Below, one piece after another: positions 4,324 through 42,833 of a stretch of 64,000 bases of DNA. The notes below the pieces were generated by a model. That model saw nothing but the letters and a program-made list of their open reading frames with translations, made no database searches and was not told where the DNA came from. The stretch is from Polyangium jinanense (GTDB taxonomy: Bacteria; Myxococcota_A; Polyangia; Polyangiales; Polyangiaceae). The position numbers and the translations under genes were made by a program. Within the stretch, counting starts at the first letter, position 1, and each line of letters begins with the position of its first letter. The DNA lies in assembly GCF_028435265.1 (NCBI RefSeq), contig NZ_JAGTJK010000012.1:166900-230899 (forward strand). Reading direction: 5' to 3'.

Positions 4324-4527
4324 TTTCCGACGGACCAGGGGCAAGACCAGCGACCGGCTTGCCAACCAAGACAGCAGCGCTGCCCGATGTGCTGGGAACG
4401 TCTCCCCTGTCGACAGCGCGCATCGCGCGCTGTCGCCCCGCGTCCAGGGCTTGCCCTGGTCCGGGTCCAGGGGTGGACAACCCCTGGTCGGGGTCCGGGG
4501 TGAAACCCCGGCGCTACGCTCGGCGAT

Positions 4528-5532
<1,005 letters not shown>

Positions 5533-5902
5533 GGTCCGCCCCTGTAACGCGGAGGCGCGTCCGCGTCGAGGGTGGATGGCGGGTTTTTCTTCACACCGTG
5601 CCCTCCGTTCAGGGGGCGCCCCCTCCGCGGTCCGTTCCCGCGGGATGCGAGGGTGCGTAGGTGGTTGTCCTGCTCGCGGGGCCGTGAGCGTGGGCCGGAG
5701 GCCATGACGTCCACCAACGAGGTGGTACGTCCATCTCGCTCCGTGCTCACGATGCGAGGCTCGACGGAGACCTTGCGCCCGTCGACCAGGCTGCACAAAA
5801 ACCATGGAGCGAGCGGCCACAAGGTTCGACAAGCGGCGGGACGAACCCGTTCTTTCTGCATTGTCGTGCTTCCAGAAACCTGGCGCGATCAAAGGAGCTA
5901 CG

Positions 5903-7912
5903 ATGGCAGCCGTTGAACCGATGGCATTGCCCCCGGATTTTAATCCCGAAACCCTCATGCGCAGCACGAGCACCGAGGTGGGGACCTTCCACGAAACTCG
6001 GCTGGCGGCCCGGCTGGCGGCCCAACTGCTTGCCCATGGTGCGGTCCAGGATATCGAGCTTTCGGAACGTATCCTGGTGGCTGTGCTGCGCTGTCAGGAA
6101 CGGGATGAGCGCGACCCCCACTACGGAAACTTCTACTGGATGCGGGAGGATGAGGTCGTCGAGGACCTGAATGCGGTCGAGTTCGTGCTGGAGGCTCTCA
6201 TTCCCATGATGCTCCAACATGGCGACCGGCTCTCGTCTGTGATGCATGACCGGGTGCTGGAGAGCGTTCGGCTGGGTCTGGAAGAGATCCGGCGGCTGGA
6301 TGTGCTGGTGGCTTATACGAACATTGCCGTTCTGGACATTCTCAATACCTGCCTGGGCGGCGAGTTGCTGGGCGAGACGGCGATCGCCGAACGGGGTTAT
6401 GACAAGCTGGTTTACTGGATCGCCTTTACCAACCGTTCAGGCCATCCTTTTGAGTACAACAGCCCGACCTATACCTCCATCACCCTGCGGGCGCTCAAAC
6501 AGTTGGCAGACCTGGTTCAGCACCGGGACACTCGCGTGCGGGCCAGGGCCATGGCTGCCCGGCTGGCGCTGAGCGTGGCCCTGCACCTTCACGCCGGCAC
6601 CGGCCGTTGGGCCGGTCCCCATAGCCGGGCCTACCATTCCACGGTGGTCTGTGAAACGCCGCCGGAGATCGAGCTGGTCCAGAGTTGGATCGCCGAGGGC
6701 ATTGTTCCTCCCTGGATCCAGGCGGTCCTGGAAGGTTTGCCCGCGGTCTTTCAGGTGAGCGAAACCGCGGAGCGCGATCGTGGATTCAGCTTCACCACCT
6801 ATCAGACCCCGACGTTTGCCCTGGGCGTGGCCAGCCAGCTCTACCAGGTTCAATCCAATGTCTGTTTGCTCCATTATCAGCGGCCGGGCGCAACCCGGCC
6901 CGGGGTTCTCTATACCCGTTATATCCTGGATGATAAGTGGTTCGGCGACTTCTACCATGCGACCGACCGGACCAAGCGTCGCAACCTGCTGGATGAAGGT
7001 CTCTTTTGGGGTGTCCAGCGCGAAAATCAGGCCATCGGTCTTTACACGCCGGCCAATATGACCGAAGGCAAGAGCGCCAAAGCCTGCCTGATCTGGTTGG
7101 ACCGGGCGCAGGTCGACGAGCTGTGGGTCGGCGAGCAGCGGGTCGAAAGCCTCCCCGTGCTCGTGTCGCCAGGGCAGGTGATCGTCGTTGGGAGTGGCGA
7201 TGTATATATGGCGGTGCGTCCTTTGACCCAGACCCCTCTGGGCCGGGAAACTCCCCTCGAACTCGTGGAACGGGACGGGGACTTGGTGCTCGAGTCGTAC
7301 AACTACCGGGGGCCATTCAAGCAATTCTGGGAGATGCACTGGCCCGGCTTCTTTTACGAGGGCCGACCCATTTGTTGTTTTTACCTGGAAGTCGCCGAGC
7401 GCCATGCCTATCCGGATGGCCGCGCCTTTGGACGGCAGGTGTTGCGTGGAACCGTGGAGGAGACGCTCGGGCCTCCCTTTACCTACGCAGCGGCAGGCGA
7501 ACGCGTCTATCGGGTTGCCTACCAGCGTGACGGCCAAGCGTTGGGCCTGGAGGTCGAGCTGATGGCCTGGAAACTCAAACGCCGCTGGACAGAAGCCGGT
7601 GAAATCGGCTGGCCCATGCTGGAAGCGCCTTCGGCCAGGCAGACGAATACCGGGCGGGTGGAGCTCGGTGAAGCCAGCCTGGTTTGTGGCCCTGAAGCAG
7701 CCTGGTTATGGGCGAGCCCGGAAAGCGGCCGCTGGGTTGCCGGCTATCTGGGCCTCACCCCGGCCCCCCTCACCCTGACGACGCCCCAGGGGCAGGTCGA
7801 GGTCACGGAGATGGGCACAGGTACCGTGGTCTGGGATCAGGGCCAGGTGACGGTGGAGGCTACCGGAGAGCCGGTGGTCAAGGTGTCCCTCCACCGCGAC
7901 GACCGTCAGTAA
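5903..7912 (+). CDS. hypothetical cytoplasmic protein (669 aa) on a lower-GC segment
   Basis: ATG at 5903 preceded by AAAGGAG RBS; no signal peptide; coding sequence is visibly less GC-rich (many A/T-ending codons) than its flanks; no motif I can name with confidence. Confidence 0.6.
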   Translation: MAAVEPMALPPDFNPETLMRSTSTEVGTFHETRLAARLAAQLLAHGAVQDIELSERILVAVLRCQERDERDPHYGNFYWMREDEVVEDLNAVEFVLEALIPMMLQHGDRLSSVMHDRVLESVRLGLEEIRRLDVLVAYTNIAVLDILNTCLGGELLGETAIAERGYDKLVYWIAFTNRSGHPFEYNSPTYTSITLRALKQLADLVQHRDTRVRARAMAARLALSVALHLHAGTGRWAGPHSRAYHSTVVCETPPEIELVQSWIAEGIVPPWIQAVLEGLPAVFQVSETAERDRGFSFTTYQTPTFALGVASQLYQVQSNVCLLHYQRPGATRPGVLYTRYILDDKWFGDFYHATDRTKRRNLLDEGLFWGVQRENQAIGLYTPANMTEGKSAKACLIWLDRAQVDELWVGEQRVESLPVLVSPGQVIVVGSGDVYMAVRPLTQTPLGRETPLELVERDGDLVLESYNYRGPFKQFWEMHWPGFFYEGRPICCFYLEVAERHAYPDGRAFGRQVLRGTVEETLGPPFTYAAAGERVYRVAYQRDGQALGLEVELMAWKLKRRWTEAGEIGWPMLEAPSARQTNTGRVELGEASLVCGPEAAWLWASPESGRWVAGYLGLTPAPLTLTTPQGQVEVTEMGTGTVVWDQGQVTVEATGEPVVKVSLHRDDRQ

Positions 7913-8565: not shown

Positions 8566-10071
8566 TCAGCGCTTTCGCAGCTCTTCCGGCACGCGGGCGA
8601 ACGTCTCCTCCGCGTCGGCAGCCGCCCATGCAACCGTGGCCACGGCCCCGACGACTTGATCGAGATCCTCCTTCGTGACCTTGTCGAGCGTGTCGTTCGC
8701 CGTGTGGTGCACGTCGAAGTACTTCGTCGCGTCCTGGTGCAGATCCACGATCGGCACGGCCGCGGCGTGCAGTGGGATGAGGTCGGCGCCGCCGTGCGCC
8801 GGGCCCTTGTCGTACTGGATCCCGAGCGGCGAGAGGAGGCTCGCGATCCGCTCGGTCACGGGCCGTGCGCCTTCCGCGACGAGGAACCGCGTCATGTGCA
8901 CGCGGCCCGCGCCGAGATCGATCTCGAGGGCGAGCTGGTGTTTGTCGAGCTCGGCCGCGTGGTCCTTGGCGTACGCGACCGCGCCGCGCAGGCCGTTCTC
9001 CTCGTTGGCGAAGAGCACCACGCGGATCGTGCGCCGCGGCCGCGCGCCGAGGCCGAGCACGAGCCGCGCGGCCTCGACGACGGCCGCGCATCCGGCGCCG
9101 TCGTCGATCGCGCCTTGCCCGAGGTCCCATGCGTCGAGGTGCGCGCCGAGCAGGACGATCTCGTCGGGCTTCTCGCGCCCCTTCACCTCGCCGATCACGT
9201 TCGCGCTCTCGGCGTCGGGCAAGAGCTTCGCGCCGAGCGAGAAGCTCACGCGCACGGGTTTGCCCTGACCGACCAGCCGCGCGATGAGCTCCGCGTCGGG
9301 CACGGAGACCGCGGCGGCCGGGATCTTGGGGACGTCCTTGTCGTAGACCATGCCGCCCGTGTGGGGAAGCCGGTCGTGGTCTGTGCCGATCGAGCGGAGG
9401 AGCACGCCGATCGCGCCTTTCCTCGCGGCGGCGATCGCGCCGCGGTACCGGATCCCGGCGACCTTGCCGTAGCCCGAGCCGTCTTTCGTGCGGGTCGTGG
9501 GGGCCGAGTAGAAGACGATCTTGCCCTTGACCTTGGCCTCGTCCATGGCGGCCATGGCGTCGAGCGACTCGACCATGACGATCTCGCCTTCGAGGCCCTT
9601 CGCGGGCGTCCCGATGCTCCCGCCGAGCGCGGCGATCGCGAGGGTGTGGGCGTACGGCGCGACGATCCGCCCGCTCTCGGCACCACGCTCCCAATGCGGG
9701 ACCATGACCTTTTCGGCGCGCACGTTTTCGAGCCCTTTTTCCTTCATGGTCCGGAGGGCCCAGGCGACGGCGGCCTTGTCCCCGAGCGACCCCGCGAGCC
9801 GCGGCCCGACCTCGTCGACGAGCGAACGAACCATGTCGTACGCATGCGAGTCGACCTGCGCGGCGAGCTGGAGTTTGTCCACGTTCGGATCGCGTGGGAC
9901 GGGGGCAGGCGCGGGAGCGGCAGCGGAGGCGGTCGCGGGCGCGGCGGCGGCAGCGGAGGCGGTCGCGGTCGCGGCGGCGGGCGCGGGGATGCGCTCGGGG
10001 GCCGGGGTTTCCGCGGCCGAGCAGGCCGCGAGCGAGAGCGTGGCGAGGAGGAGTGCGCTTCGGGCGTACAT
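8566..10071 (-). CDS. M28-family peptidase with PA domain (aminopeptidase), lipoprotein
   Basis: LLLATLSLAACSA lipobox; HLDAWDLGQGAIDDGAG and FANEENGLRGA metal-ligand and catalytic regions typical of M28 aminopeptidases. Confidence 0.85.
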   Translation of the reverse strand: MYARSALLLATLSLAACSAAETPAPERIPAPAAATATASAAAAAPATASAAAPAPAPVPRDPNVDKLQLAAQVDSHAYDMVRSLVDEVGPRLAGSLGDKAAVAWALRTMKEKGLENVRAEKVMVPHWERGAESGRIVAPYAHTLAIAALGGSIGTPAKGLEGEIVMVESLDAMAAMDEAKVKGKIVFYSAPTTRTKDGSGYGKVAGIRYRGAIAAARKGAIGVLLRSIGTDHDRLPHTGGMVYDKDVPKIPAAAVSVPDAELIARLVGQGKPVRVSFSLGAKLLPDAESANVIGEVKGREKPDEIVLLGAHLDAWDLGQGAIDDGAGCAAVVEAARLVLGLGARPRRTIRVVLFANEENGLRGAVAYAKDHAAELDKHQLALEIDLGAGRVHMTRFLVAEGARPVTERIASLLSPLGIQYDKGPAHGGADLIPLHAAAVPIVDLHQDATKYFDVHHTANDTLDKVTKEDLDQVVGAVATVAWAAADAEETFARVPEELRKR

Positions 10072-17891: not shown

Positions 17892-18003
17892 CGTCTGCCC
17901 TCCGCGTGTCTCGAGGGCGAAAGGAGGCAAGAGACGTGCGATGGCACGCGCAGGCGCGCGCCGAGCACGGATTTCGCAGATTGGGAGGGAGGGGAGGGAG
18001 CCG

Positions 18004-19356
18004 TTACGACGAAGGCTTGCGGGGCGTGAGACGCGCCGTCCCTTCGAGCCCCTGCGCGCGTGCTGCCTCGACGACAGCCTCACACACGGCCTCGTGCACA
18101 TGCGGCAAGAGCGGCGAGGGAACGACCTCGCCCTTCTCCGCACACGACGCGATCGCGCGCGCCGCCGCGATACGCATCTCCGGCGTGATGGCGCGGCTCT
18201 CCACGGCGAGCGCGCCGCGGAACAGGCCCGGGAATGCGAGCGCATTGTTGATGCTGCGCCCGTCGCTGCAGTATGCAGCGCCCGCCGCGAGCGCATCGAC
18301 CGGCTCGATCTCGGGGTCCGGGTTCGACAGCGGGAAGATGACCTGCCCCGGCCGGATCCATTTCGGATCGATGAGCCCCGGCCTCCCGGTCGCCGCGATC
18401 ACGATATCGGCCTCGCGCATGAGCGTCGGCAGATCGACCGGGTGCGCGCCGAGGCTCTTGAGCCACGCCATCGCCTCCTCCGACCGATCCGTCACGAGCA
18501 CGTCGCGCGCCCCGTGCGCCATCATGAGCCGGGCGATCGCGCTTCCGGCCGCGCCGAGCCCGATCTGCCCGACGCGCGCCTTTTCCAGCGAGACGCCCGT
18601 CATTTTACACGCATTGAGCACCGCGGCGAGCGCGACCGTGGCCGTGCCGTGCTGGTCGTCGTGCATGACGGGTTTGTCGAGGCGCTCGATGAGCTCTTCC
18701 TCGATCTTGTAACAATCCGGGATGCGGATGTCCTCGAGGTGAATGCCGCCGAACGTGAGCGAGAGGCGCAGGACCGTGTCCACGAACTCCCGCGGATCGA
18801 GCGTGTCGACGAGGATCGGCGAGGCGCTGATCCCGACGAACTTGTCGTAAAGGACGGCCTTTCCTTCCATGACCGGCAGCGAGGCGAGCGGCCCGACATT
18901 GCCGAGGCCGAGGACACGCGTGCCGTTCGTGAAGATGCCGACCGAGTTCCCGATCCCCGTGAGGTGCCGCGCGCGCTCGGGCTCCCGTTCGATCGCACGC
19001 GCAACGCGGGCCACGCCCGGCGTGTAGATGTAACGCAAATCGCGCTGATGACGGAGCTCGATCCGGCTCGTCATGTGGAGCTTGCCGCCCTTGTGCAGGT
19101 CGAAGACGCGGTCGATCGTGTCGATCAGCTCGACGCCGTCGATGGCGCGCACGGCCTCGATGACGCGGTCGCGCTGCTCCTCGTCCTGGGTCTCGACGGT
19201 GATCTCGCGCAGGGTATCGCTCTCCACGATGCGCAAGGTGGTGATGTCACCAAGCAAACCGCCCTGCTCGGCCACGACCGTGGCAAGACGGGCAAGCTGG
19301 CCCACGCGGTGTTTGCATTTGACGCGAAGTACGGTGTCGAGGCTCGTCTTCCTCAT
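18004..19356 (-). CDS. NAD(P)-dependent malic enzyme with N-terminal ACT domain
   Basis: ACT-like N-terminus, malic-enzyme core (VLGLGNVGP, GTATVALAAVLNA), NAD-binding GLGAAGSAIA. Confidence 0.85.
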   Translation of the reverse strand: MRKTSLDTVLRVKCKHRVGQLARLATVVAEQGGLLGDITTLRIVESDTLREITVETQDEEQRDRVIEAVRAIDGVELIDTIDRVFDLHKGGKLHMTSRIELRHQRDLRYIYTPGVARVARAIEREPERARHLTGIGNSVGIFTNGTRVLGLGNVGPLASLPVMEGKAVLYDKFVGISASPILVDTLDPREFVDTVLRLSLTFGGIHLEDIRIPDCYKIEEELIERLDKPVMHDDQHGTATVALAAVLNACKMTGVSLEKARVGQIGLGAAGSAIARLMMAHGARDVLVTDRSEEAMAWLKSLGAHPVDLPTLMREADIVIAATGRPGLIDPKWIRPGQVIFPLSNPDPEIEPVDALAAGAAYCSDGRSINNALAFPGLFRGALAVESRAITPEMRIAAARAIASCAEKGEVVPSPLLPHVHEAVCEAVVEAARAQGLEGTARLTPRKPSS

Positions 19357-19476
19357 GGGGGCGCGGACCATACCACGAAGAAGGCCGAGTGGGAGCAAGT
19401 TGGGGAAGGAGGAGATTCCGTCTCGTCGGATCTTCCCTTATCATCCGCGCGTAGCGTTGCCCGAGGAGAGACGAGC

Positions 19477-21450
19477 ATGGTGATGTTCTCGCCCACGGAG
19501 GCCTTGCGGCCCAACTTGCACGTGGAGGTCGCGTCGGGGGACACGCTCGATGTGCGCAAGTTCCAGGTCACGGAGCGCGTGTCGGATCTCTTCGAGGTCC
19601 GCCTCGTGGCGCTCTCGCCGAACCCCGAGATCGACTTCGAGGCCGTGCTCGGGCGGGAGGCGACGTTCACGCTCTCCCGCGACCGGCTCCTCGCCTCCGC
19701 GTACCGCACCTGGGGCGGGATCTGCCATCACATCCAGCAGATCGAGTCGGAGGAGGCCGGGCTCTCCACGTACGAGCTCGTGATCGTGCCGAAGCTCTGG
19801 TTCCTCACGCAGCGGCGCAACCACCGCATGTTCCAGCAGCTTTCGGACCTCGACGTCGTGCTGCAGGTCCTCCGCGAGTGGGGCATCGAGCCCGTGCAGA
19901 AGGTCGACGCGGCCGCCTACAAGAAACGCAAATATCGGGTGCAGTACGGCGAGAGCGATTACGCTTTCGTCTGCCGGCTGCTCGAGGATGCGGGGATCAC
20001 ATTTTACTTCGACCAGCAGGGCGAGGACACGGTGCTCGTCCTTCATGACGCACCGCAGGACAATCCGCCGCGTGAGCCCGCCGTCCGGTTCGTGGACAAA
20101 CCGATGGTGGACAAGGATCTCGAGTTCGTGACCGAGGTGCGTGTCGGGCAACGCACGCGGCCGGGCAAGTACACGATCTTCGACCACGATTACCGGCGGC
20201 CGGCGAACTACAAGCTCATGGGCACGCACGCCGAGGGCGAGGCCTTCGAGCAGCAGATGGAGCGGTTTCATTACGTGCCGGGCGCGTTCCTCTTCCGCAC
20301 CGACGGGCGCGAGCCGACGCCGAGCGCCGACGACAAAGGCGCGGCGCGTCACGACGAGTCGGAGGCCAAGCGCATCGCGCGGATCCGCCTGGAGGCGAAG
20401 CGCGTCGAGGCCCGCAAGGCCACGTTCCGCACGAACCTCGTCGAGCTCCGGCCCGGGACCGTGATGCGTGTCGTCGATCATCCGCGGCGCGAGTTGTCGA
20501 ATCGGCTGCTCGTGGTGCATTCGACCTACGAGGGCACGTCGTTCGGCGAGTGGGTCCACAAGCTCGAGACGCGCAGCGCCGAGATCCACTACCGCCCGCC
20601 GCTCGTCACGCCGAAGCCAAAGGTGAGCGGCGTGGAGAGCGCGACGGTCGTCGGGCCCGCGGGCGAGGAGATTCATACCGACGAGTTCGGCCGCGTGCGG
20701 GTCCATTTCCACTGGGACCGCGAGAGCCAGATGAACCAGGATAGCTCATGCTGGATCCACGTGAGCCAATCGTGGGGCGGCGCGGGCTACGGCGGCGTGC
20801 AGCTTCCGCGCATCGGCCAGGAGGTGATCGTCGATTTCCTCGGCGGTGATCCGGACCGGCCCATCATCGTGGGGCGCGTGTTCACGAATCTGCAAAAGGT
20901 GCCGTATCCGCTGCCGGCGAACAAGACGCAGAGCGGGCTCCGATCGGCGTCGTCGCCGGCGACGGGCGGGTACAACGAGCTCATGTTCGAGGACGCCGCG
21001 GGCCGCGAGCTCATGCGGCTCCAGGCCGAGCGCGACTTCACGGGCCTCGTGAAGCACGATATGCGGTTCAACATCCAGAACGACCGCACGCACAACGTCG
21101 GCAACAACGACACGGAGTCCGTGGTCGGCGAGCAGTCGGTGAAGGTCGCGAAAAAACGCACGGTGCGGGTCAAGCTCGATCAGCAGCACCAGGTCGGGGA
21201 AAACATCCTCACGCAGGCGGTGAACGGCACGGCGACGCACATGTCGAACAAGGCGCTCACGCTCTTCAGCCCGGAGAAGATCGTGCTCTCCACGGCGCCG
21301 AACTCGTTCATCCTGATCACGCCGGGCAAGATCACGATCGAGGCCCCGCTCGTGCACATCAACCCGGGCGATACGTCCGTTCCCAATCCGCCGCAGCCCG
21401 ACGCGATCGGGGACGCCACGACCATCACCGGATACATCGGAGCGCCATGA
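19477..21450 (+). CDS. vgrG: type VI secretion spike protein VgrG (TssI), short form without a C-terminal effector extension
   Basis: ATG at 19477 with GAGGAGAG RBS (upstream 512 aa of the six-frame ORF is Arg-rich and antisense to the malic enzyme gene); gp27-like N-terminus; gp5 OB/spike motifs [11 protein letters not shown] and [24 protein letters not shown]. Confidence 0.9.
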   Translation: [657 protein letters not shown]

Positions 21451-22403
21451 GGGTTCGCAAAGTACGCGTCGACGGATTCCGGGGTTTGCCGGACCAGGAG
21501 TTTTCCCTGACCGATCCGCGCACGGACAGCGCCCACGAGCTCGTGGTCGTGACCGGCCCGCGCGCGAGCGGCAAGACGAGCTTCCTCGAAGCGATCGTCG
21601 CGGCGAAGGAGCAGGTTGGCCCGTATGGCCCCGCCGCGCCGCCGTCGAGTTTCCTGCGCCCCGGCGTGAGCACGGCGAAGGTGCGCGTCGAATGGGAGCT
21701 CTCGAATGGGGAGCGAGATCGGTACGGCACGGGCAAACGCGCATTCGTGAGCGAGTCGATCTTCGGCGACCTCGTGGTCGATCCGCCGGAGCCGGATCCG
21801 GCGCTCGCGGCGTTGCTCTCGGAGTACATCCCGGAGCCGGCGTTCGGGAAGGTCGAGTATTTCCACGCCTCGCGGAGGCTGCCCCTCGGGTCGACGATCG
21901 ATCTGTCGAAATCGGCCGGAGACAGCCTCGATCGTATGGTGAGGCTCGGCCGCGACGACACGAAGTACGCGGGGCTCGTGCGGTTCATCGTGGAGGCGGG
22001 GCTCGGGCTCGACGTGGACGCCGAGGGCAAACCAAAGCCAAAGGGACGCATCAAAAAGGCGTTCGAGGCGCTTTGCCCGACGAAGGAACTCGGAGGGCTC
22101 TACAAGGCGGGGGACGCGATGCTGCCGGTGTTCCTCGACGGACGGCGCAGGGCGTACAGCATCGCGCAGCTCTCGGACAGCGAGCTCGACGCGCTGCTCT
22201 TCGCGACGACATTCGTGCGGGCGGGCATCGGTCAATCGATCGTGCTCGTCGACACGCCGGAGAAGCACCTCGGCGACGTGGAAGCGCGCGAGTTCGTGAA
22301 GGCGCTCGCGACGCTCGGCGCGGACAACCAGCTCATCGTGGCGACGCAATCGGCGGCGCTCGTGTCGAGCGTGCAGGCGGATCAAGTGATCCGGCTCGGG
22401 TGA
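21447..22403 (+). CDS. ABC-class (AAA_21/AAA_15-like) ATPase coupled to vgrG
   Basis: ATGA overlap with the vgrG stop; Walker A VVTGPRASGKTSFLEAI; signature-like LSDSELDALLFA; Walker B/D-loop SIVLVDTPEKHLGD resembling the LIDEPENHLHP motif; 318 aa, no fused nuclease domain. Confidence 0.7.
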   Translation: MRVRKVRVDGFRGLPDQEFSLTDPRTDSAHELVVVTGPRASGKTSFLEAIVAAKEQVGPYGPAAPPSSFLRPGVSTAKVRVEWELSNGERDRYGTGKRAFVSESIFGDLVVDPPEPDPALAALLSEYIPEPAFGKVEYFHASRRLPLGSTIDLSKSAGDSLDRMVRLGRDDTKYAGLVRFIVEAGLGLDVDAEGKPKPKGRIKKAFEALCPTKELGGLYKAGDAMLPVFLDGRRRAYSIAQLSDSELDALLFATTFVRAGIGQSIVLVDTPEKHLGDVEAREFVKALATLGADNQLIVATQSAALVSSVQADQVIRLG

Positions 22404-22407
22404 GGTG

Positions 22408-22836
22408 ATGGCGGTCTACGAGGTCGACGAGTTTTCGTTCGAGGTGCCCGACGGGTACGTCGATCGCAGCATGAACCTGTTCACGCCGCCTGCGGGGCTC
22501 ATGCAGGCGACGCGGCAGAGCCTGCTCGTGACGCGGGAGCCGCGCACGGAGGAGACGGTGTCGCAGCAGGCCTCGCGGCTCGTGAAGGAGCTCGCGGCGA
22601 AGGTGCCGGGGATGAAGGTCCTCGGGCAGCGGGATCGTGCCCTCGGCGCGCTGCCCGGCCGGGAGGCGCGGATCCACGCGGTGCAGGGCACCGTGCCGGT
22701 CTATCAGCGATGTTTTTTCGTGGGCCATTACGGCACGTTGCTCACGGTCATCGCGACGTCGATGCGGTCGCAGAGCGCGCAATGCGATGCGCTCGTCGAG
22801 CGATTCATCTCGAGCTTGCGCCTGAAGAAGCGTTGA
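22408..22836 (+). CDS. DUF1795/DcrB-fold Eag-like T6SS effector chaperone (copy 1)
   Basis: about 143 aa; N-terminal YEVDEFSFEVPDGYVDRSMNLF pattern; sits between vgrG and a TMD-bearing prePAAR protein; the identical-length paralog follows. Confidence 0.5.
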   Translation: MAVYEVDEFSFEVPDGYVDRSMNLFTPPAGLMQATRQSLLVTREPRTEETVSQQASRLVKELAAKVPGMKVLGQRDRALGALPGREARIHAVQGTVPVYQRCFFVGHYGTLLTVIATSMRSQSAQCDALVERFISSLRLKKR

Positions 22837-22851
22837 GGCGGAGGAGGAGCT

Positions 22852-23283
22852 TTGGGCTTTTATCAGACGCAGGAAGCGGGCTTCGAGCTGCCGGCGAACT
22901 GGACCGACGCGAGCATCAACATGCTCGAGTATCCGCGCCCGGAGGGTTTGATCCGGGTGGGTTTGTCGCGGGCCGAGCGCGGGAACCGGGACCTCGCGGC
23001 GAGCCTGGAGGAGGTGATCGTGGAGCAGCGGCGGAAGCTGCCGTTCTTCGAGCTCCTCGGGCGCGTGGATCGCGTCTGCGGGGGTTTGCCCGGGATCGAC
23101 ACGAGGGTCACGTACGAGGAGTCGTCGCGCAAGGTGTATCAGCGGGCGCTCTCGTTTGTGATCGGGGGGCGGTTCTTCGTGCTGGGCGTCAAGGGAACGG
23201 CGACGCAGGAGGCCGAGGTCGACGCGATGTTCGAGCGGGCGGCGTCCACGTTCACGTTACGCGCGCGGCCCTCGGGGGCCTGA
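22852..23283 (+). CDS. DUF1795/DcrB-fold Eag-like T6SS effector chaperone (copy 2, TTG start)
   Basis: TTG at 22852 after GGAGGAGGAG RBS; 143 aa, collinear similarity to copy 1 (YQTQEAGFELPANWTDASINMLEY). Confidence 0.5.
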   Translation: MGFYQTQEAGFELPANWTDASINMLEYPRPEGLIRVGLSRAERGNRDLAASLEEVIVEQRRKLPFFELLGRVDRVCGGLPGIDTRVTYEESSRKVYQRALSFVIGGRFFVLGVKGTATQEAEVDAMFERAASTFTLRARPSGA

Positions 23284-23296
23284 GGAGGGTAGGGCG

Positions 23297-24442
<1,146 letters not shown>

Positions 24443-24444
24443 CC

Positions 24445-26715
24445 CTACCGCCCGCCGCGCCCCGCGGGCTGCGATTGCACCACGCGACCCAGTGCAAGCA
24501 CCCGCAGCGTGATCGGCTCATTGTCCGCCGGATCCTGCTGCGGGTGCGGCTCGGCAATGGCGCGGACGCGGAACTTCGGGAAGAGCGGCAGCTTCTCGGC
24601 GAGCGCCTCCGGCATGTACGTCGGCAAAGGCGATCCGCTGCCCAGAGAGAGTATTCCCCCGATGTGCTCCCCGCCGAAGAGCTTGCGCCTGAGGTAATGC
24701 CGCTCCTCGATCAGAATGCGCTGCGCCGTCGTTTCGAGGTAATCCGACGCGAGCGACCGATTGGCCTGGGCAAACGCCTGCCGCACGCGTGACAGCGCGC
24801 CCTCGAGCAGAGGCACCGCCGCGCTCCGCGGCCCCCGGCAAAGCTCCTCCGCCGCGTCGAGCGCCTCCTTCAGCCGCTTGTCCACCCCCGCGAGCTGCGA
24901 GGCCACGGCGATCGTCGTTTTCAGCGTCTCCAGCGGGTCGCAGGTCATCACGAGCTCGCCATTCACGAGGACGAGCGGCTGTTCGAAGATCCCATCCTCG
25001 TCGATGGCCTCCTCCATCACGCGGGCAATGCCGACCGCGTCGAGCGGAGGCACGCGGCCGAGCGCGCGCCGAATGTCGCGCCGATCGGTCATGGCCTGCG
25101 TCGGTTCCTCCGGTTCCTCGCCCGTGAGCCACTCCGTCGGGCGCTGCGGATCCCGCACGTACGAGGCCCACGCCGATTGCTGACGCACGCGTTGGGGGGC
25201 GCGCTCGTCGAACCAGATCAGATCGACGTATTCCGAGGTCGGCGCGCGGCGCCGCGCAGGTGCGCTCGTCGATATCGCGGGCGCGGCCGGTTCGGGGCGC
25301 GGCGCGGCGACGGCCGCCGCATCGGAGGCCGCCGCGAGGCCGCCGAGCGTCGCCTGGGCATCGTGCACGGGCGGCGCGACGGGCGCGGGCGGCACGGGCG
25401 CCGCGATGGGCACGGGCGCGGGCGGCGCGACGGGCGCGGGCGGGGGCGTATACATCGGCGGCGCAGCCGGGGGCGCGGGGGCCGGCGCGCTCAGCGACGA
25501 GGCCGGCGCACTCAGGAAGGGAAGGCGCCCGCCGGACGCGGGGGGCCGGGCCGCAGGCGCCTCGGGCGCGGGGCTGGGCGTCGACTGGAACGGCAAGACA
25601 CGCCCCGCGGCGGCGGCCTGCGCGAGGCTCGGATCGGCGATCGTCTGGGCCCGCGGCGGCACGGGTTTCGCGGATTTCGCCTCCGCGTCGTCGTTCGGGG
25701 GAATCGATTTTTGCGGGCGCGGCGGCGCCTCGGGCGCGGCCGCGGACTTCGAGGGCGGCGCGTTGTCGAGCCAGATTCGCACCTCGCCCGGTTCGTCGCG
25801 CTGGCGCATGGGGATCTGCGCGCGGAACGTCAGCGTGCAGAGCAGCCGATCGGTATCGATCCACAAGGTATCGGCGCGCATCGGCTGCGCGGCCGCGCCG
25901 CGGCCCTCGATCAGGAACACCGGCTGGAGGCCCGGCAGGTTCGTGACGAGCCGCGGCACGCTCGGGTGTAAGTTTTCGAGGATGATCCGCGCGTTCGGGG
26001 GCAGGAAATCGGTCTGCTGATCCGGCGGCGCCGCATTGAAATAGCGGAAATCGAAGCCGTCGGGGACGTGTGATTCGTACCAGCGCTCGGGCAAGCTGCT
26101 CCGGGCGAGCGCGCCGAGCCGCTCGCGCCGGGAGGGCCACGCGGGCGCGAGCGGGCCGAACCCGACGGGCTCGACGTAATCGGCGGGGGCGCGGACCGTG
26201 ACGCCCGGCCACGTGAGGTTCGGCACGCGCACGCGCCCCATTCCGTCGGCCCATCCCGCGCGCACGCCGACCGGATTCGCCGTGTCCGGACCACCGCCGG
26301 ACCGCTCGTAGACGAGCGGCATGCGCGCGAAGCGTTGCCCCTCGGCGAGGGATCCGTCGGGCTGGAACCAGCGATCCAGGGTGACCTCGATCGACTTGTC
26401 GACCTCGCCGACGATGAGCCGCGCGACGACCGAGCGCGCGGGGACCTGCTGCGGCGCGTGCGCGGAGCCCACGAGGAGCACGTCCGCGCGAGGCTTGAAG
26501 GGCACGAGGTCGCCGGGCGCGCGCAGGCTTCGGTTCGTGTCGTCGTCCCAGTGCTCGTCGGCGGAGGTGATGTCTTCTTGCGCCTCGGCGAGCTGGGACG
26601 TGCCCGGCGCGAGGGAAAACGTCGCCTTGCAGACGAGCGTGAACACCCACCCCTGCGAGCGGTTCGGCCAGACCAAAGGCGCACAGGGGAACGGGATGTT
26701 CGAGACGATTTTCAT
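24445..26715 (-). CDS. extended DUF2169-like protein (T6SS cargo adaptor family), 756 aa, with Pro/Ala-rich linker and extra C-terminal helical domain
   Basis: N-terminus MKIVSNIPFPCAPLVWPNRSQGWVFTLVCKATFSLAPG is the characteristic DUF2169 start as I recall it; T6SS island context; convergent, 2 bp from the PAAR-protein stop. Confidence 0.5.
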   Translation of the reverse strand: MKIVSNIPFPCAPLVWPNRSQGWVFTLVCKATFSLAPGTSQLAEAQEDITSADEHWDDDTNRSLRAPGDLVPFKPRADVLLVGSAHAPQQVPARSVVARLIVGEVDKSIEVTLDRWFQPDGSLAEGQRFARMPLVYERSGGGPDTANPVGVRAGWADGMGRVRVPNLTWPGVTVRAPADYVEPVGFGPLAPAWPSRRERLGALARSSLPERWYESHVPDGFDFRYFNAAPPDQQTDFLPPNARIILENLHPSVPRLVTNLPGLQPVFLIEGRGAAAQPMRADTLWIDTDRLLCTLTFRAQIPMRQRDEPGEVRIWLDNAPPSKSAAAPEAPPRPQKSIPPNDDAEAKSAKPVPPRAQTIADPSLAQAAAAGRVLPFQSTPSPAPEAPAARPPASGGRLPFLSAPASSLSAPAPAPPAAPPMYTPPPAPVAPPAPVPIAAPVPPAPVAPPVHDAQATLGGLAAASDAAAVAAPRPEPAAPAISTSAPARRRAPTSEYVDLIWFDERAPQRVRQQSAWASYVRDPQRPTEWLTGEEPEEPTQAMTDRRDIRRALGRVPPLDAVGIARVMEEAIDEDGIFEQPLVLVNGELVMTCDPLETLKTTIAVASQLAGVDKRLKEALDAAEELCRGPRSAAVPLLEGALSRVRQAFAQANRSLASDYLETTAQRILIEERHYLRRKLFGGEHIGGILSLGSGSPLPTYMPEALAEKLPLFPKFRVRAIAEPHPQQDPADNEPITLRVLALGRVVQSQPAGRGGR

Positions 26716-26819: not shown

Positions 26820-28109
26820 TCAATGGCAGCAGGTATTGCTGGCCCAGGCCACGCCGCCGCCGGACCGGTAGATCACGACGTTGCCGTCGTTCTGTACGGC
26901 GAGATTGGCGTAGTAATTCGACGAGCCGGCCGTGCCCGAGGCCCAGACGGGCTGGCCCGTGGACTTGTAGATCACGAGGTTGCCGTCCTCCTGCATGATG
27001 GCGCGGTCGCCGCCCTTGCCGTTCGTGCCGGAGGCCCAGAGCGGCGAGCCGCCCTGGTAAAGCACGAGGTTGCCGTCGCCCTGGAACTTGAGCTGGAAGC
27101 GGCCGTCACACGACCAGACCGATTGCTCCGCCCCGAGCCCCTGGCCGGAAGAAAGCCAGCCGCAGCCCGACGGCGACGCATACGCGGCGTAACGCGACCA
27201 GATGCCCGCGCGATCGTCGTCCGCGAGCGAGGTGTCGTTGCCGGTGTAATACGCATACATGGTCGCGGCCGAGTCGGTCGAATGGCCGAGGCCGAGGGCG
27301 TGACCGACCTCGTGCAGGGCGACGGTCTCGAGGTAGGCCGAGGACCAGCCCTCCGCGTCGTCGAAATGCACGTCGCCTCCGAGGCCGCCGCCCGGCGAAT
27401 AGGCGTGGGCGAGGACGCCGGACGAGCCGTCGAATGCACTGCTGCAGCCATGGCTGCCCGTGTAGAACCCGAACGAGATGTTCTCGCCCGAGCTCACCTC
27501 GGAGAAGCTCAAGGACGAGGAGGATCGCCACGAGAAGAGCGCGTTCTCGATCGCGGAGCGAACGGAGGCCTGGGCGAAGTCCGAGGTGTAATTCGCGAAC
27601 CGATAGGTCAGCGCCGTGGACGACCAGGTCCCGCCGAAGTGCGTGTAGGGGTCGATGTCGAGGGTCGGCACGACGCTCGGCGGATCGTAATAATCGGGGT
27701 GGCTGCAGCGCGGCATCTGCATGATTCGCTGCGTCGCGGCGTCGACGACGCCGGTCACGGGCAGGCCGTGCTGGGCCTGGTAGAGGCGCACGCCCTCTTC
27801 GAGGGCCTCGTCGAAGAGCTCCGGATCGGCCGGCTCGCGTGAGACGGCGGGCGTCCAGTCGGCGTAATGCTCGGCGAGCTCCTCGTTCTGGTAATACCCA
27901 TAGCGACGCAGATACTCGTACACGCCGCGCACCTCCGCGCCCCGCGCGCCGAGCCCGAGGCCCGCGGCGCTCTCGGCATCCACGGAAGCCTCGTCGCCGA
28001 GCGTCGAGACGTCGTCGCCCGCGCATCCCACGAGGGTCGTCGAGGCGGCCAGGGCGAGAGGCGCGAGAAACAGTGCGAAGCGGGAGTCGAAAAGGTTCGT
28101 CGAGGCCAT
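26820..28109 (-). CDS. secreted M10 matrixin-type zinc metalloprotease with N-terminal peptidoglycan-binding domain and C-terminal bulb-type (B-)lectin repeats
   Basis: ATG at 28109 (MASTNLFDSRFALFLAPLALAASTTLVGCAGDD lipobox; upstream 118 aa of the ORF is Arg/Pro-rich); HEVGHALGLGHS zincin motif; PG_binding_1-like YLRRYGYY; three QxDGNxVxY repeats. Confidence 0.85.
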   Translation of the reverse strand: MASTNLFDSRFALFLAPLALAASTTLVGCAGDDVSTLGDEASVDAESAAGLGLGARGAEVRGVYEYLRRYGYYQNEELAEHYADWTPAVSREPADPELFDEALEEGVRLYQAQHGLPVTGVVDAATQRIMQMPRCSHPDYYDPPSVVPTLDIDPYTHFGGTWSSTALTYRFANYTSDFAQASVRSAIENALFSWRSSSSLSFSEVSSGENISFGFYTGSHGCSSAFDGSSGVLAHAYSPGGGLGGDVHFDDAEGWSSAYLETVALHEVGHALGLGHSTDSAATMYAYYTGNDTSLADDDRAGIWSRYAAYASPSGCGWLSSGQGLGAEQSVWSCDGRFQLKFQGDGNLVLYQGGSPLWASGTNGKGGDRAIMQEDGNLVIYKSTGQPVWASGTAGSSNYYANLAVQNDGNVVIYRSGGGVAWASNTCCH

Positions 28110-28465
28110 GGGATTGATTCTCCGTATGCGAGGGATGAAAGCCCCTATCGCAACGGACATGCCACCTCGGCGGGGCGCGGGGCCCTTGGGGCGATCCTGT
28201 CGAAAGGAATGGTGTTTTCGGGGACGGGACGGGGGGCGCGAGGGCGGGGCGTGTCGAGGGTTGGAGGTGCCAGCCTCCAGGCATGGAGGTGGGAACCGCC
28301 AACGCGCGCCCGGCGGACGGGCATGGCGCCGGGGCGGATACGCTTGCCGGAGGAGCGCTCGGTCCGAGGGGAGATCCGTGCACACGGCACCTCGTGGCTC
28401 GAGGATTGCTGCGCGGGACGCGGAATCGCGAGCCAAGCGCTCGCGCGCAGCCATTGGGGGCAATC

Positions 28466-31340: not shown

Positions 31341-34300
31341 TCAGAGATCGAAGAGCTCGTCGTCCTGGCCCGCGTCTTCCTCGGCGAGGAGGGCCTCCGC
31401 GTGCTTGGCGACCGATTCGAAGAATTTTTGCTCGGGGGATTTCGGGGGCAATCGAGCAGCGGCTTCCCGGGCCTGCGAGCGGAGGAGCGTTTCGCTGCGC
31501 TCTGCCCGGGCGCCCGAGCGCGGTCGCGCCTGGCCCGTGACGACCGAGAAGAGCGCGCTCCGGACCCGCTCGAAGCAGCCCTCGCCGGTCGTGTGCGCGC
31601 GCCGGAGGAGCGTCGCGACGAGCTCGAGGTGCGCGAAGAGGAAGGTGGGCGGCGCCTCTTCGAGGAGCGCGGAGATCGCTTCGAGCTCGCTCTCGCCGCC
31701 GTCCTGCACCCACTCGGAGAGGACCTCGACCGTCGGTAACGCAAACGAGCGCGAGGCGTCGTGGAAGAGGCGCGCGGCATGGAAGCGGACCCAGCCAATG
31801 CGGGCCCGCGCGAGGTGGCGGACACGGCGCAGGAGCGGGAGCCACTCCGGCGAGCGCGCGAGGCCCGTGAGGATCGCAGACAAGCCCTCGGGCGGGAGCG
31901 GCTCGTACTCCTCGGCGCCCGCGACGATGCCGGACGCGGCGCGCGCGATGCGCTCGATGAAGAGGCCCGTGACGTCCTCGGGCATGCGCTTGCCGGCGTG
32001 GTGGAGGAAGCGCATCGTGGAGTGGCCGTCGAGGCTGCGGGCCGCGCCGAGGCGCGTGAGGAAGAGGATGATCTCCTCCTCGGAGAGCGCGCCTTCGGAG
32101 AAGAGGCCGCCCGCGTCGAGGGCGCCGAAGAGGGCCTCGGCGACCTCGGGGCCCTCGGAGAGGTCCACGCCGACCGCGAGCTCGACCGCGTCGCGTGGAG
32201 AGGACTTGGCCAGCGTGCGGAGCGCGCCGAGCGCCGCGCGTCGGACGAAGCCGTCGCGGTGCCCGAGGAGGTGCCGGAGCGCTTCGCGATCGCCCGGCAG
32301 GGGCTTTTCGACCCAGCGATGGAAGACCTGCGCGAGCGAGGCGCAAAGCGTGGCGTTGCCGCCCCCGACGATGCTGCCGACGAGGGCCTCGGCGCGCTCG
32401 GGCGAGGCTTCGCGGAGCGCGTGGAGCAAGGAGGCGACGTGCGGGCCGAGTGGGCTCTCGGGCGCGCCCATGACGGCCTCGCAAATGGTCACCGCCGCCG
32501 CCGGGTGCTTGCGGGAGAGGACGTGCAGGAGGAGCCGCGGCGAGCCGGATTTGCCCGCGAGCGCGAGGGCTTCGAGCGCCGCGCCGAGCCCCTCGGCCGT
32601 CTGCGCAGGCGCGCGGCCCTCGGCGAGCATCTCGTCGACGACGGCGCGACAGGCGTCCGCCGAGCGGCGCTCCGTGCCACGATCGATCTCGCCCGAGCCC
32701 GGGATCTCGCTCGGCGGCATGTCGATCAAGCCGCGCTGCGCGGGTGAGCGTTGCGTGAGGGCCTCGTAGAGCCTGCGCTCCGTCGAGGTCGGGACGTTGC
32801 CGAGGGCCGTCTCGGCCGCGGCGCGGACGTCCGGAGAGCTCGCACGCCGGGCCGCGCGGCGAAGCGCGTCGGCGACGGCGAAATGGACGAGCGGGTCGCC
32901 GGAGTTCGACGCGGCGGCGCCGAGCATCGCGAGGATCTCGAGCCGCTCCTCGTCGCGCCACCCAGGCTCCATCCGCTCGCCGAGCGAAGAACCACCGGAG
33001 CCGTCGGAGAGGACACGCTCGAGGCCGTTGACCCCCGAGAGAGCCGCGCGTCGTTTCGGCGATTGCGCGCAGCCGGAGAGCGCGGCGAGGGCTTGCTTCC
33101 GCAGGGCGCGGCGGCGCTCGTCGGAGGGGCCGGCGAAGGCGGCGCCCTCGGAGAGGAAGGTGTCGATCACGTCGAGCGGTGAGTGCTTGTGATCGTGCGC
33201 GTCGTCCGCGACGAGCCATCGATCGACGGCGTCGAGCAAGGACTCGTGGACGCCGGCAGGGCGCGCCGACGAGCGCGAGGCGAGCTCGCGGAGGACACGC
33301 ATGGGGTGATCGGGGTGCGGGCTCTGGAGACGGAGATCGTCGCGGCCGAGCTCCCAGAGGAGGTCGGCGGCGCGGGGCAAGTGCGCGAGGTGCAGGCCCA
33401 CGCGGCGCAGGATCGCGGGGAGCTCGTAGAGGACGGACACGGCGGAGAAGAGGGCGCTGGGGCCCCGCGCGGCCTCGGTCTGCGCAGGAGAACGGAGGAC
33501 CGCCGCGGCGAGGTCGAGCATCGCGGCGGGATGATCCGAGGAGAGCTCACGCAGGCCGGCGAGGAGGCGGCATCGATCCGCCGCCGAGGCCGCGTCGATG
33601 CCCGCGCGGACGTGGCGGAAGAGGGCGGTCGTGATCTCGTCGGAAGCGCCGCTCGGGAGGGAGGGGCCGTCGAGCTCGCCGGCGTTGCGGATGAGCGGGA
33701 CGATGGCGTGGGCGCCGAAGCGCTCTTCCAGCGCGCGCACGCGATCGTCGAGCGAGCCCGCGAGGCTGCCCGCGGTCAAGGGGCCGACGAGCGCGCGGTA
33801 GAGCGCGTGATCCGAGAGCGCGCCGGGGACGACACGCGCGCCGTGTGGGCCCCGATCGACGACGCCCGCGGCTTCGAGCGCGCGGAGCGCCGACACGAGA
33901 TCACGACGGCGACACCCGAGCAGATCCCCCGCGCCCTGAAGGAAGCGCTCGTCCGAGGTGCGCACCGGCGCGAGGAGCGCGACGAGCGCGAGCACGCCGG
34001 CGAGGAGTTTTGGATCCCCCGCGGCGGAGGAGCGGAGCAGGAGCAGCTCGTGGCCCCGATCGAGCGCGCATGCCGCGAGCTCGCCCTTGCCGAGCAAGAC
34101 GGGATGAATGGCCTCTTCCCGCACGAGCCGGCCGGCCAGCGCGATCACGAAGGGATGCCCCTCGGCGTGCTTGGCGAGGGCGGCAGCGAACTCGCCGGGC
34201 GCATCGCCGAGCACATGCTGCGCGGCCGCTTCCGCCTCGCTCGGCGAGAGCGCGCCGAGCTCGGGCAGGATGCGCACCAGGTCCGACGAGAGCCCGACCT

Positions 34301-34787
34301 GCGCGAGGAGCGCCGAGAGGCGCGGCAGGCCCGCGGGGCGCGTCGTCAGCACGAAGCGCACGTCGCGGCGATCGATCGCCATGGGCAGGAGCATCGCGGG
34401 CGCGGCTTTGCGGCCCGCGTCGTCGATCACGATCAGGCACGGGCCGGGCGGCAGGCGTGTCGGGGTCGGCGCGCTGGTGATGTCGGTCGCGAAGCGCAGC
34501 ATGGTGCCGACCCGCTGCGCGGCGAGGGCGTCGGCGAGCGCGGAGAGCAGGCTCGTCTTGCCGGAGCCGGAGCGCCCGGGGAGCACGGCGACGCGCGCCG
34601 GGCCGCGTGCGCTTGCGAAGTCGACGAGGGCCGCGAGGATTTCGGCGCGCCCGCCGAAGGGCAGCGCTTCCTGGAAGGGGCGGCCTGCGGCGAGCGCGCC
34701 GCCTTCGAACTCGCTCGGGCCAAAGAGCGCCACACCGTGCTCGATGTGGGCGTCCGGAGGAGTGGGGAAGCCGAGGGTCGTCTCCAT
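31341..34787 (-). CDS. STAND-type P-loop NTPase with a large alpha-helical repeat C-terminal domain (1149 aa)
   Basis: ATG at 34787; FGGRAEILAALVDF, then Walker A LPGRSGSGKTSLLSALA and Walker B PCLIVIDDAG; more than 800 aa of Ala/Leu-rich helical repeats; upstream 76 aa of the ORF is Arg-rich. Confidence 0.75.
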   Translation of the reverse strand: METTLGFPTPPDAHIEHGVALFGPSEFEGGALAAGRPFQEALPFGGRAEILAALVDFASARGPARVAVLPGRSGSGKTSLLSALADALAAQRVGTMLRFATDITSAPTPTRLPPGPCLIVIDDAGRKAAPAMLLPMAIDRRDVRFVLTTRPAGLPRLSALLAQVGLSSDLVRILPELGALSPSEAEAAAQHVLGDAPGEFAAALAKHAEGHPFVIALAGRLVREEAIHPVLLGKGELAACALDRGHELLLLRSSAAGDPKLLAGVLALVALLAPVRTSDERFLQGAGDLLGCRRRDLVSALRALEAAGVVDRGPHGARVVPGALSDHALYRALVGPLTAGSLAGSLDDRVRALEERFGAHAIVPLIRNAGELDGPSLPSGASDEITTALFRHVRAGIDAASAADRCRLLAGLRELSSDHPAAMLDLAAAVLRSPAQTEAARGPSALFSAVSVLYELPAILRRVGLHLAHLPRAADLLWELGRDDLRLQSPHPDHPMRVLRELASRSSARPAGVHESLLDAVDRWLVADDAHDHKHSPLDVIDTFLSEGAAFAGPSDERRRALRKQALAALSGCAQSPKRRAALSGVNGLERVLSDGSGGSSLGERMEPGWRDEERLEILAMLGAAASNSGDPLVHFAVADALRRAARRASSPDVRAAAETALGNVPTSTERRLYEALTQRSPAQRGLIDMPPSEIPGSGEIDRGTERRSADACRAVVDEMLAEGRAPAQTAEGLGAALEALALAGKSGSPRLLLHVLSRKHPAAAVTICEAVMGAPESPLGPHVASLLHALREASPERAEALVGSIVGGGNATLCASLAQVFHRWVEKPLPGDREALRHLLGHRDGFVRRAALGALRTLAKSSPRDAVELAVGVDLSEGPEVAEALFGALDAGGLFSEGALSEEEIILFLTRLGAARSLDGHSTMRFLHHAGKRMPEDVTGLFIERIARAASGIVAGAEEYEPLPPEGLSAILTGLARSPEWLPLLRRVRHLARARIGWVRFHAARLFHDASRSFALPTVEVLSEWVQDGGESELEAISALLEEAPPTFLFAHLELVATLLRRAHTTGEGCFERVRSALFSVVTGQARPRSGARAERSETLLRSQAREAAARLPPKSPEQKFFESVAKHAEALLAEEDAGQDDELFDL

Positions 34788-42803: not shown

Positions 42804-42833
42804 CGGCAGAGCGCGAGTACGCTGCGCGCTGGC

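Follow-up and report, generated by a model that had tools for sequence, protein, structure and literature searches.

A conserved ABC-type ATP-binding protein coupled to vgrG and a DUF2169-associated C-terminal domain in an orphan type VI secretion island of Polyangium jinanense

What does a type VI secretion system (T6SS) cargo island deliver when neither a toxin nor an immunity gene can be recognized in it, and what is an ABC-class ATPase doing in the position directly after vgrG? Both questions are raised by a locus (positions 19477–26715) within a 64-kb stretch of the Polyangium jinanense genome, referred to here as the window. The locus comprises vgrG, an ATPase gene, two eag genes, a prePAAR gene that encodes no recognizable toxin domain and, convergent to these, a gene for an extended DUF2169 protein. 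An earlier note on this DNA had offered three readings: an unusual delivery module, a locus decaying or rewiring after removal of its toxin, or a payload consisting of the ATPase or of the C-terminal domain (CTD) of the DUF2169 protein. The evidence presented here favors the first. We consider it probable that the island is an intact, not decayed, auxiliary T6SS spike module, so far seen only in Polyangiaceae-like myxobacteria, with the ATPase and the CTD as accessories and the prePAAR protein as payload. Orphan vgrG islands as such are commonplace in Polyangiaceae (for Chondromyces apiculatus, 54 vgrG, 35 PAAR and 70 adaptor genes have been reported; PMC8651086, PMC7714669). New in this one are two slow-evolving, conserved accessories: a PtuA/AriA-like ATP-binding protein translationally coupled to vgrG, and a CTD of ~270 aa, fused to DUF2169 or free-standing, which accompanies the ATPase.

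The island extends from a malic-enzyme gene (18004–19398, − strand) to an M10 peptidase gene (26820–28463, − strand), and an open reading frame (ORF) check found the six genes inside it where the earlier note had placed them. The vgrG gene (19477–21450, + strand) encodes a full-length spike protein of 657 aa, which is identified as a VgrG/TssI spike by matches to Phage_GPD (239 bits), Phage_base_V (49 bits) and Gp5_trimer_C (83 bits) in Pfam and by a TIGR03361 score of 477 bits (cut-off 186). Its stop codon lies on the ATPase start codon in a 4-nt overlap (ATGA); a spacing of 1 nt separates the ATPase gene from the first eag gene, and spacings of 13–15 nt separate the two eag genes and the second eag gene from the PAAR gene. 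The coupling and tight spacing described earlier for the four genes after vgrG are thus confirmed. The PAAR and DUF2169 genes are arranged tail to tail with their stop codons 2 nt apart, and the ORF list of the window has no entry between these stops. GC3 is 0.83–0.91 for each of the six genes, in a window with a G+C content of ~69%. Pfam searches of the 52 predicted ORFs scanned in the 64-kb window gave zero matches to T6SS core genes (TssA-M, Hcp, ClpV), and the island is therefore an orphan vgrG island. The inventory of the earlier note was borne out by the hidden Markov models (HMMs) for VgrG, DUF1795, PAAR and DUF2169, as was its observation that a toxin and immunity pair could not be found: there is no toxin-domain match.

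Comparison with related loci indicates that the ATPase belongs with vgrG. In all, 38 loci, designated here by L numbers, were looked up or retrieved and annotated with Pfam tables and with tblastn using parts of the window; a scan of metagenome contigs with a Walker-A-free ATPase sub-alignment yielded 26 loci, and the flank was readable in 28. In every one of these 28, an ATPase homologue is located at most ~2.5 kb from vgrG, down to ~33% ATPase identity. This association is far beyond chance, and the tie to vgrG on which the earlier description had been staked holds in the homologous loci. In ~20 of the 28, vgrG lies immediately upstream of the ATPase on the same strand; a PAAR or Eag gene intervenes in three (L008, L033 and L032), and an uncharacterised gap of 1.5–1.7 kb separates the two genes in L027 and L030. 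Polyangium, Chondromyces and uncultured relatives together account for 14 loci with the complete order vgrG-ATPase-Eag-Eag-prePAAR. In other loci, what lies downstream of vgrG-ATPase is different: in L003, a second ATPase, a single Eag, a pesticin-like lysozyme and DUF2169; in L009, one Eag, a 421-aa protein whose C-terminus carries a PAAR, and DUF2169; and in L005, DUF2169 only. Since the vgrG-ATPase pair is kept while the downstream genes differ, we regard the ATPase as a vgrG-linked accessory gene that is not bound to one effector. The family has at least 120 homologues of 300–340 aa, the named ones being from Polyangium, Chondromyces, Minicystis, uncultured Polyangiaceae or Myxococcales. 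L020 (4202–7215) is the sole locus with the ATPase and vgrG divergently transcribed. The 421-aa protein of L009 (9403–10668), located between the Eag gene and DUF2169-CTD, is rich in Ala, Pro and Lys at its N-terminus, has a PAAR-like motif at its C-terminus (sub-threshold, 23 bits), and may be an effector with a reversed domain order.

The ATPase (21447–22403, + strand) consists of 318 residues and matches a P. jinanense protein with 100% identity. Its sequence support is marginal (AAA_21, 29.5 bits; cut-off 27), whereas its assignment by structure is clear. The AlphaFold2 (AF2) model, calculated with 30 homologues in the alignment, has a pLDDT of 92.8, and PtuA and AriA come first in both the structural and the PADLOC comparisons, the PADLOC AriAB and PtuA models matching at E ~1e-16; NF041760 (PtuA) gives 17 bits versus a cut-off of 500. 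A motif census of 115 homologues identified an invariant G37, G42 and K43 in Walker A, with T44 in 114 of them, and a conserved Walker B D269 together with P271 and E272. An L-S-x-S-E motif is located at the position of the LSGGQ/E signature of ABC proteins, in a register that was checked against UvrA and Rad50. Walker A, the Walker B Asp, the signature and the fold together establish an ABC-type ATPase (AAA_15/AAA_21) with an SMC/PtuA-like head, in agreement with the class and position claimed for it earlier. The canonical catalytic Glu position after the Walker B Asp (270) is occupied by Thr in 81 and by Glu in only seven of the 115 homologues, and none of the 115 has an H-loop His at 301/302. 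The invariant E272 and the frequent H274 might compensate for the missing Glu and His. As Walker A, the Walker B Asp and LSxSE are kept while the catalytic Glu and the H-loop His are gone, we infer an ATP-gated dimerising clamp or scaffold. Such a protein would bind ATP and dimerise head to head but hydrolyse ATP poorly, and would act as a switch or scaffold, like its relatives from defence systems, rather than as a motor. Tandem pairs of ATPase paralogues in L003 (10001–11841) and L021 (7653–9493) hint at a possible heterodimer.

The second accessory is part of the DUF2169 protein (24445–26715, − strand; 756 aa). Residues 24–298 (25822–26646, − strand) form the DUF2169 domain, a TvpA-type adaptor (PF09937, 236.6 bits; cut-off 25). 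It is followed by an Ala/Pro-rich linker (residues ~311–484; 25264–25785, − strand; 47 Ala and 45 Pro in 174 residues), the length of which differs among homologues, and then by the CTD (residues 485–756; 24448–25263, − strand), a novel conserved domain. An alignment across five loci revealed many invariant positions in the CTD. Its sequence has no match in Pfam, PADLOC or the Protein Data Bank (PDB). Structure prediction, which the earlier note had proposed for both accessories, gave the PtuA/AriA-like head for the ATPase and helices with a C-terminal OB-like β-barrel for the CTD, without a match to a toxin fold. The CTD is present in 13 ATPase loci, convergent or co-directional, and is fused to DUF2169 except in L004 and L007, where it is part of a protein without DUF2169. 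A look-up that started from a CTD homologue led to a further vgrG-ATPase-Eag-Eag-prePAAR locus, L013.

The rates of change within the island locate its variable part. The sister species Polyangium sp. 15x6 (L010) carries a syntenic locus with a malic-enzyme gene nearby; as in the window, the same 2-nt tail-to-tail junction is found and no small gene follows the prePAAR gene. Between the two species, the C-terminal part of the DUF2169 protein (97% aa identity, dN/dS 0.08) and the ATPase (89%, 0.20) have evolved most slowly, followed by VgrG (92%, 0.32) and the two Eag proteins (72% each; dN/dS 0.45 for Eag1 and 0.39 for Eag2), whereas the prePAAR protein has only 49% identity and a dN/dS of 0.70. 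Nucleotide matches to 15x6 extend over 19403–23277 (89%) and 24348–25414 (94%), with none over 23277–24348, which corresponds to the prePAAR gene minus its last ~95 nt. Residues 171–250 of the prePAAR protein have 27% identity and a dN/dS of ~1.1. As judged from these sequences, the pattern is the one expected where conserved machinery encloses an effector cassette that is replaceable or diversifies, and chaperones that co-evolve with it. Conserved flanks around a variable prePAAR cassette argue against the ATPase or the CTD as payload, and against decay. In L010, three additional genes (4478–6911; a 98-aa ORF, a TP_methylase and an acetyltransferase) lie between the malic-enzyme gene and vgrG, and the window is without them.

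The candidate variable payload is thus the small prePAAR-TM-PAAR protein (TM, transmembrane; 23297–24442, + strand; 381 aa). Its PAAR_motif match is clear (PF05488, 42 bits; cut-off 27), and its prePAAR_I score of 17.9 bits is below the cut-off of 25. Residues 7–16 (AVRLEDKVEH) correspond to the AARxxDxxxH motif with one A-to-V change, and the family alignment shows no variation at A7, R9, D12 and H16. The family profile matches Tre23, Tas1, Rhs1-NT and Tse6-NT in the PDB, over the N-terminal ~150–200 positions only. The TM hairpin (residues ~19–57; 23351–23467, + strand) is the only strongly hydrophobic region, with values of up to 2.5 in a 19-residue Kyte-Doolittle window; elsewhere values stay at or below 0.8, the maximum of the post-PAAR segment, which reaches 0.7–1.6 in relatives. 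Of the prePAAR classes, class I combines one TM region with Rhs, and class II has two TM regions that flank PAAR; here, there is one strong TM region and no Rhs. The post-PAAR region (residues 147–250; 23735–24046, + strand) contains the conserved motif SGELPEWF and the weakly hydrophobic segment, followed by ~80 hypervariable residues. After the PAAR domain, only S145, R152, G155, E156, Y234 and G245 are near-invariant in the family alignment, which has no conserved catalytic-type residues in this region. A PDB profile search with the post-PAAR region returned no match, and no C-terminal toxin domain beyond residue ~200 was found in Pfam, NCBIfam, PADLOC or the PDB. Next comes a Gly/Ser/Asn low-complexity expansion of ~100 residues (24047–24346, + strand) encoded by 9- and 21-nt tandem repeats, which were located by TRF at 24106–24331 and again at 24400–24436; from residue 252, the tail contains 66 Gly and 27 Ser in 130 residues. 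This expansion is not in the 15x6 orthologue (312 versus 381 aa). The protein closes with a conserved Pro-rich motif (...QQLALPAPPPRLALPPPSGG...GGG; 24347–24439, + strand), and nucleotide similarity to L010 is back from 24348.

The missing toxin domain is a property of the family. A full HMMER scan with residues 1–255 found 485 relatives, and nine of the best matches (255–410 aa) have a shared core of ~250 residues and then variable tails, with repeats such as LALPAP, LLLPPP, IIIPET or WTPP and frequently a PGG end. Because relatives across metagenomes stop after the core and a repeat tail, the toxin-less form is the design of the family and not a truncation. At least six independent loci have the same arrangement, with no toxin domain in the prePAAR protein and no immunity gene beside its gene. 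Upstream of the prePAAR gene, the two Eag/DUF1795 chaperone paralogues, each of 143 aa (22405–22836 and 22852–23283, both + strand), match Pfam DcrB with 48.2 and 43.9 bits (cut-off 27.2). The first-position Eag is conserved in 14 loci, and conservation was also seen for the second-position paralogue; the eag genes adjoin the prePAAR gene and vgrG in the window and in 14 related loci. Binding of the CTD to the LALPAP tail was considered and found unsupported by co-occurrence: the CTD loci L003, L005 and L009 are without such a protein, L001 has the tail without a CTD nearby, and L002 and L006 have a tail of a different type. The VgrG C-terminal tail is also Pro-rich and ends in ...TGYIGAP (21370–21450; tail alignment). 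This extension is common to L001, L007, L010, L011 and L013, a subtype linked to LALP-tail prePAAR proteins, and ends in (Y/F)(I/F)GxP, YAP or SP; L002, L003, L006 and L008 are without it.

These observations suggest the following mechanism, parts of which derive from what is known of the protein families. VgrG forms the spike, and the prePAAR/PAAR part would cap the VgrG trimer. The Eag proteins would shield the hydrophobic hairpin in the producer cytoplasm, possibly together with the weakly hydrophobic post-PAAR segment. In the manner of TvpA, the DUF2169 domain would stabilise the PAAR-VgrG tip. The ATPase would be neither motor nor toxin but an ATP-gated dimerising clamp or scaffold, and might hold, check or release the VgrG-PAAR-Eag pre-complex; the ATP-binding protein and the CTD could jointly act as a nucleotide-gated clamp for assembly or release of the loaded spike. 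The payload would be the prePAAR protein itself, with its hypervariable post-PAAR region and Pro-rich repeat tail. This payload looks non-enzymatic and is probably a membrane-active or binding module, which would explain why a separate toxin/immunity pair was not found. A more specific proposal is tentative: the ATPase and the CTD, fused or free, might form a nucleotide-gated loading and release device, derived from the ABC-ATPase stock of the Septu/PARIS scaffolds, that assembles VgrG with the Eag-chaperoned prePAAR protein and triggers hand-over or chaperone release. A role purely in Eag release was also considered and is weakened, as three ATPase loci (L005, L008 and L033) are without any Eag; the ATPase thus cannot be purely an Eag-release factor.

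Several observations weigh against the interpretation of an intact module with a prePAAR payload, the Eag-less loci among them. Relaxed constraint would account for the dN/dS of ~1 in the post-PAAR region just as diversifying selection would. Neither the window nor L001, L004, L007, L010 or L013 has a small gene behind the prePAAR gene, and there is no immunity gene next to it. The role of the ATPase is read from its position, conservation and fold. For five or six ATPase loci (L001, L008, L020, L026, L029, L033), no CTD is present in the flanks that are available, and in L012 a CTD-only gene (9001–9801; 266 aa) has no vgrG within 9 kb. Finally, DUF2169 proteins are normally paired with DUF4150/PIPY PAAR-like proteins, not with canonical prePAAR proteins, so that the spike served by the convergent DUF2169 gene could be a different one; there is no DUF4150/PIPY partner among the six island proteins, in which the only PAAR is the canonical PF05488. 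The CTD gene of L012 adjoins a 2OG-Fe(II) oxygenase gene, and the window also contains one (58059–58649, − strand).

Among the alternatives, the one that survives best, doubtful as it is, treats the prePAAR protein as a non-toxic, membrane-anchored structural cap, with the cargo encoded elsewhere or loaded via DUF2169-CTD, for instance a peptidoglycan hydrolase as in other loci. It is consistent with the lack of a toxin domain, catalytic residues and an adjacent immunity gene in the window and in the five related loci just named, and it gains from the cell-wall hydrolase genes without signal peptide beside related islands: a LysM-muramidase gene precedes DUF2169(-CTD) in L002 and L006, and lysozyme-like neighbors are found in L003 (pesticin-like) and L013 (phage-lysozyme-like, upstream of vgrG). 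However, a polymorphic effector, rather than a structural cap, would be expected to form a hypervariable cassette between conserved flanks, as the prePAAR gene does, and in the L002/L006 subtype a 106-aa gene directly after the prePAAR gene occupies the usual immunity position. In addition, the neighbor of DUF2169 in the window, the M10 peptidase with PG_binding_1, was considered as the missing cell-wall cargo because muramidase and lysozyme genes adjoin DUF2169 in related loci, and was rejected: its lipoprotein signal (MASTNLFDSRFALFLAPLALAASTTLVGC, with an LVGC lipobox) points to Sec export, and it is therefore not counted as T6SS cargo. This matrixin-type peptidase also has a weak B_lectin match and a likely start at MASTNLF...; its gene is directly upstream of the DUF2169 gene, and the 100-nt spacer contains a TTGACA-like hexamer.

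It is unlikely that the delivered toxin is the ATPase or the CTD itself, as the third reading of the earlier note had it. The slot after vgrG often carries cargo effectors, and neither protein has an assigned function. Nevertheless, these are the two most conserved parts of the island, and they recur beside different effectors (prePAAR proteins, the pesticin-like protein and the PAAR-fused 421-aa protein), with the prePAAR gene as the variable part. Moreover, the ATPase is without catalytic Glu and H-loop His and is duplicated in tandem in L003 and L021, neither protein is followed by an immunity-like gene, and the CTD fold has no toxin match.

Slightly less credible still is the proposal that vgrG islands merely carry along a Septu/PARIS-type system for anti-phage defence or conflict, made up of the ATPase and perhaps the CTD protein. 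PtuA and AriA are indeed the closest matches to the ATPase, and defence genes often cluster in variable islands. However, the ATPase is a minimal head of 318 residues without the PtuA/AriA extensions, it is always near vgrG and usually start/stop-coupled to it, and its partner domain is fused to the T6SS adaptor DUF2169. An HNH (PtuB) or TOPRIM (AriB) partner was found neither in the window nor in the Pfam-annotated related loci, the other loci being covered by family tblastn only. Decay of the locus after recent deletion of a toxin/immunity pair is the least likely explanation, since the lack of such a pair, the abutting PAAR and DUF2169 genes and the repeat expansion in the tail have to be set against intact ORFs with a GC3 of 0.83–0.91, purifying selection on five of the six genes (dN/dS 0.08–0.45), an identical junction in Polyangium sp. 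15x6, the same architecture in L013, L007 and L004, and a family whose members across metagenomes end in the same way.

The intact-module interpretation places the island among several known systems. With the Eag-chaperoned prePAAR effectors (Tse6/EagT6, Tas1 and RhsA/EagR1; Ahmad et al. 2020, PMC7773334), it shares the AARxxDxxxH-type motif, the N-terminal TM hairpin, PAAR, an adjacent eag gene and an upstream vgrG. It differs from them in several respects: the Rhs cage of class I, a recognisable C-terminal toxin as in class II and an immunity gene are all missing, only one region is clearly hydrophobic, there are two different eag paralogues rather than a single gene, an ATPase gene lies between vgrG and eag, and the tail carries Pro-rich repeats. 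With Tvp classes I–III (Bondage 2016; Sachar 2025, PMC11883445; Monlezun 2026, PMC13373197), it shares DUF2169 in a vgrG-PAAR island. The usual Tvp partner is a DUF4150/PIPY PAAR-like protein, whereas the island has a canonical PAAR with prePAAR and Eag; multi-domain DUF2169 proteins are known, but those contain pentapeptide repeats and not an α-helical and OB-like domain. In Pfam, none of TvpB (pentapeptide repeats), TvpC (DUF6484/DUF3540) and TvpD was above threshold in the island proteins, and a DUF6484 match inside the VgrG OB domain is sub-threshold only. DUF1795 and DUF2169 adaptors have been reported to be adjacent in <5% of cases (PMC7714669). PtuA (Septu, retron Ec78/Ec83/Eco7) and AriA (PARIS) have ~460–550 aa as deposited, compared to 318 in the island ATPase, which in addition is without a nuclease partner and without the H-loop His, has its Walker B Glu replaced, and is paired with vgrG instead of an HNH or TOPRIM gene. 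ClpV/TssH, TssM and TagT (TagQRST) are likewise nucleotide-binding proteins that act on the T6SS. However, ClpV is an AAA+ unfoldase, TssM is the NTPase of the membrane complex and TagT, encoded in core clusters, is an ABC subunit of the transporter type that has a permease partner, in contrast to the soluble SMC/PtuA-type head from auxiliary vgrG islands. The vgrG2-tsxE-tsxI island of Myxococcus xanthus (Troselj 2018, PMC5801462) is also a myxobacterial orphan vgrG island off the core cluster that supplies T6SS cargo, but it consists of vgrG, an effector (amidohydrolase-LysM) and an immunity gene, with no ATPase, Eag, prePAAR or DUF2169. No such accessory ATPase linked to vgrG is mentioned in the paper on Tvp classes I–III, where the word ATPase does not occur at all, in a review of T6SS accessory factors from 2026 or in the results of targeted full-text searches, which is not proof of novelty.

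Thus, the island is a lineage-specific variant of the vgrG auxiliary module, with two undescribed conserved accessory parts of putative function and an unusual effector class. A 2026 study states that the release of Eag-bound TM domains is an open question and discusses an ATPase among the possible energy sources (PMC12881460), and the loading of such membrane-protein effectors onto the spike is likewise an acknowledged question; the island offers a candidate, as a compact, conserved gene set with a soluble ABC-type ATP-binding protein hard-wired to vgrG, often beside eag, prePAAR and DUF2169 genes. A PtuA/AriA-type ABC scaffold, so far known from anti-phage immunity, would here have been recruited into an interbacterial weapon, and the sole variable “cargo” of the prePAAR family would be a short non-enzymatic region with Pro-rich repeats. 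If the proposed loading and release device is real, no ATP-dependent factor dedicated to effector loading would have been described in a T6SS before it; if secretion does not depend on the ATPase, the locus simply joins the dozens of orphan vgrG islands that Polyangiaceae typically carry.

Some further features of the window are recorded here. The vgrG frame is free of stops over 17941–21450 (+ strand), which includes 1.5 kb upstream of the true start that run antisense to the malic-enzyme gene; the 1169-aa protein that naive ORF calling would give there is a high-GC artefact. Two STAND-type NTPases, conflict or signalling genes, are encoded at 31341–34787 (− strand; nSTAND5/AAA_16, 1148 aa) and 58709–61342 (+ strand; HTH-AAA_16/NACHT, 877 aa). 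An operon-like run at 40953–50921 contains an unknown 616-aa gene, MoxR (AAA_3), an unknown 700-aa gene, an ABC_tran ATPase and an ABC-2-like permease. Next to this run is a convergent vWA/YfbK_C gene, which is preceded on its own strand by an ECF-type sigma factor. NADAR (53053–53610, + strand) and Uma2 (57474–58055, + strand) genes are present in the window, and NADAR also flanks L003 and Uma2 also flanks L010, which is probably a coincidence.

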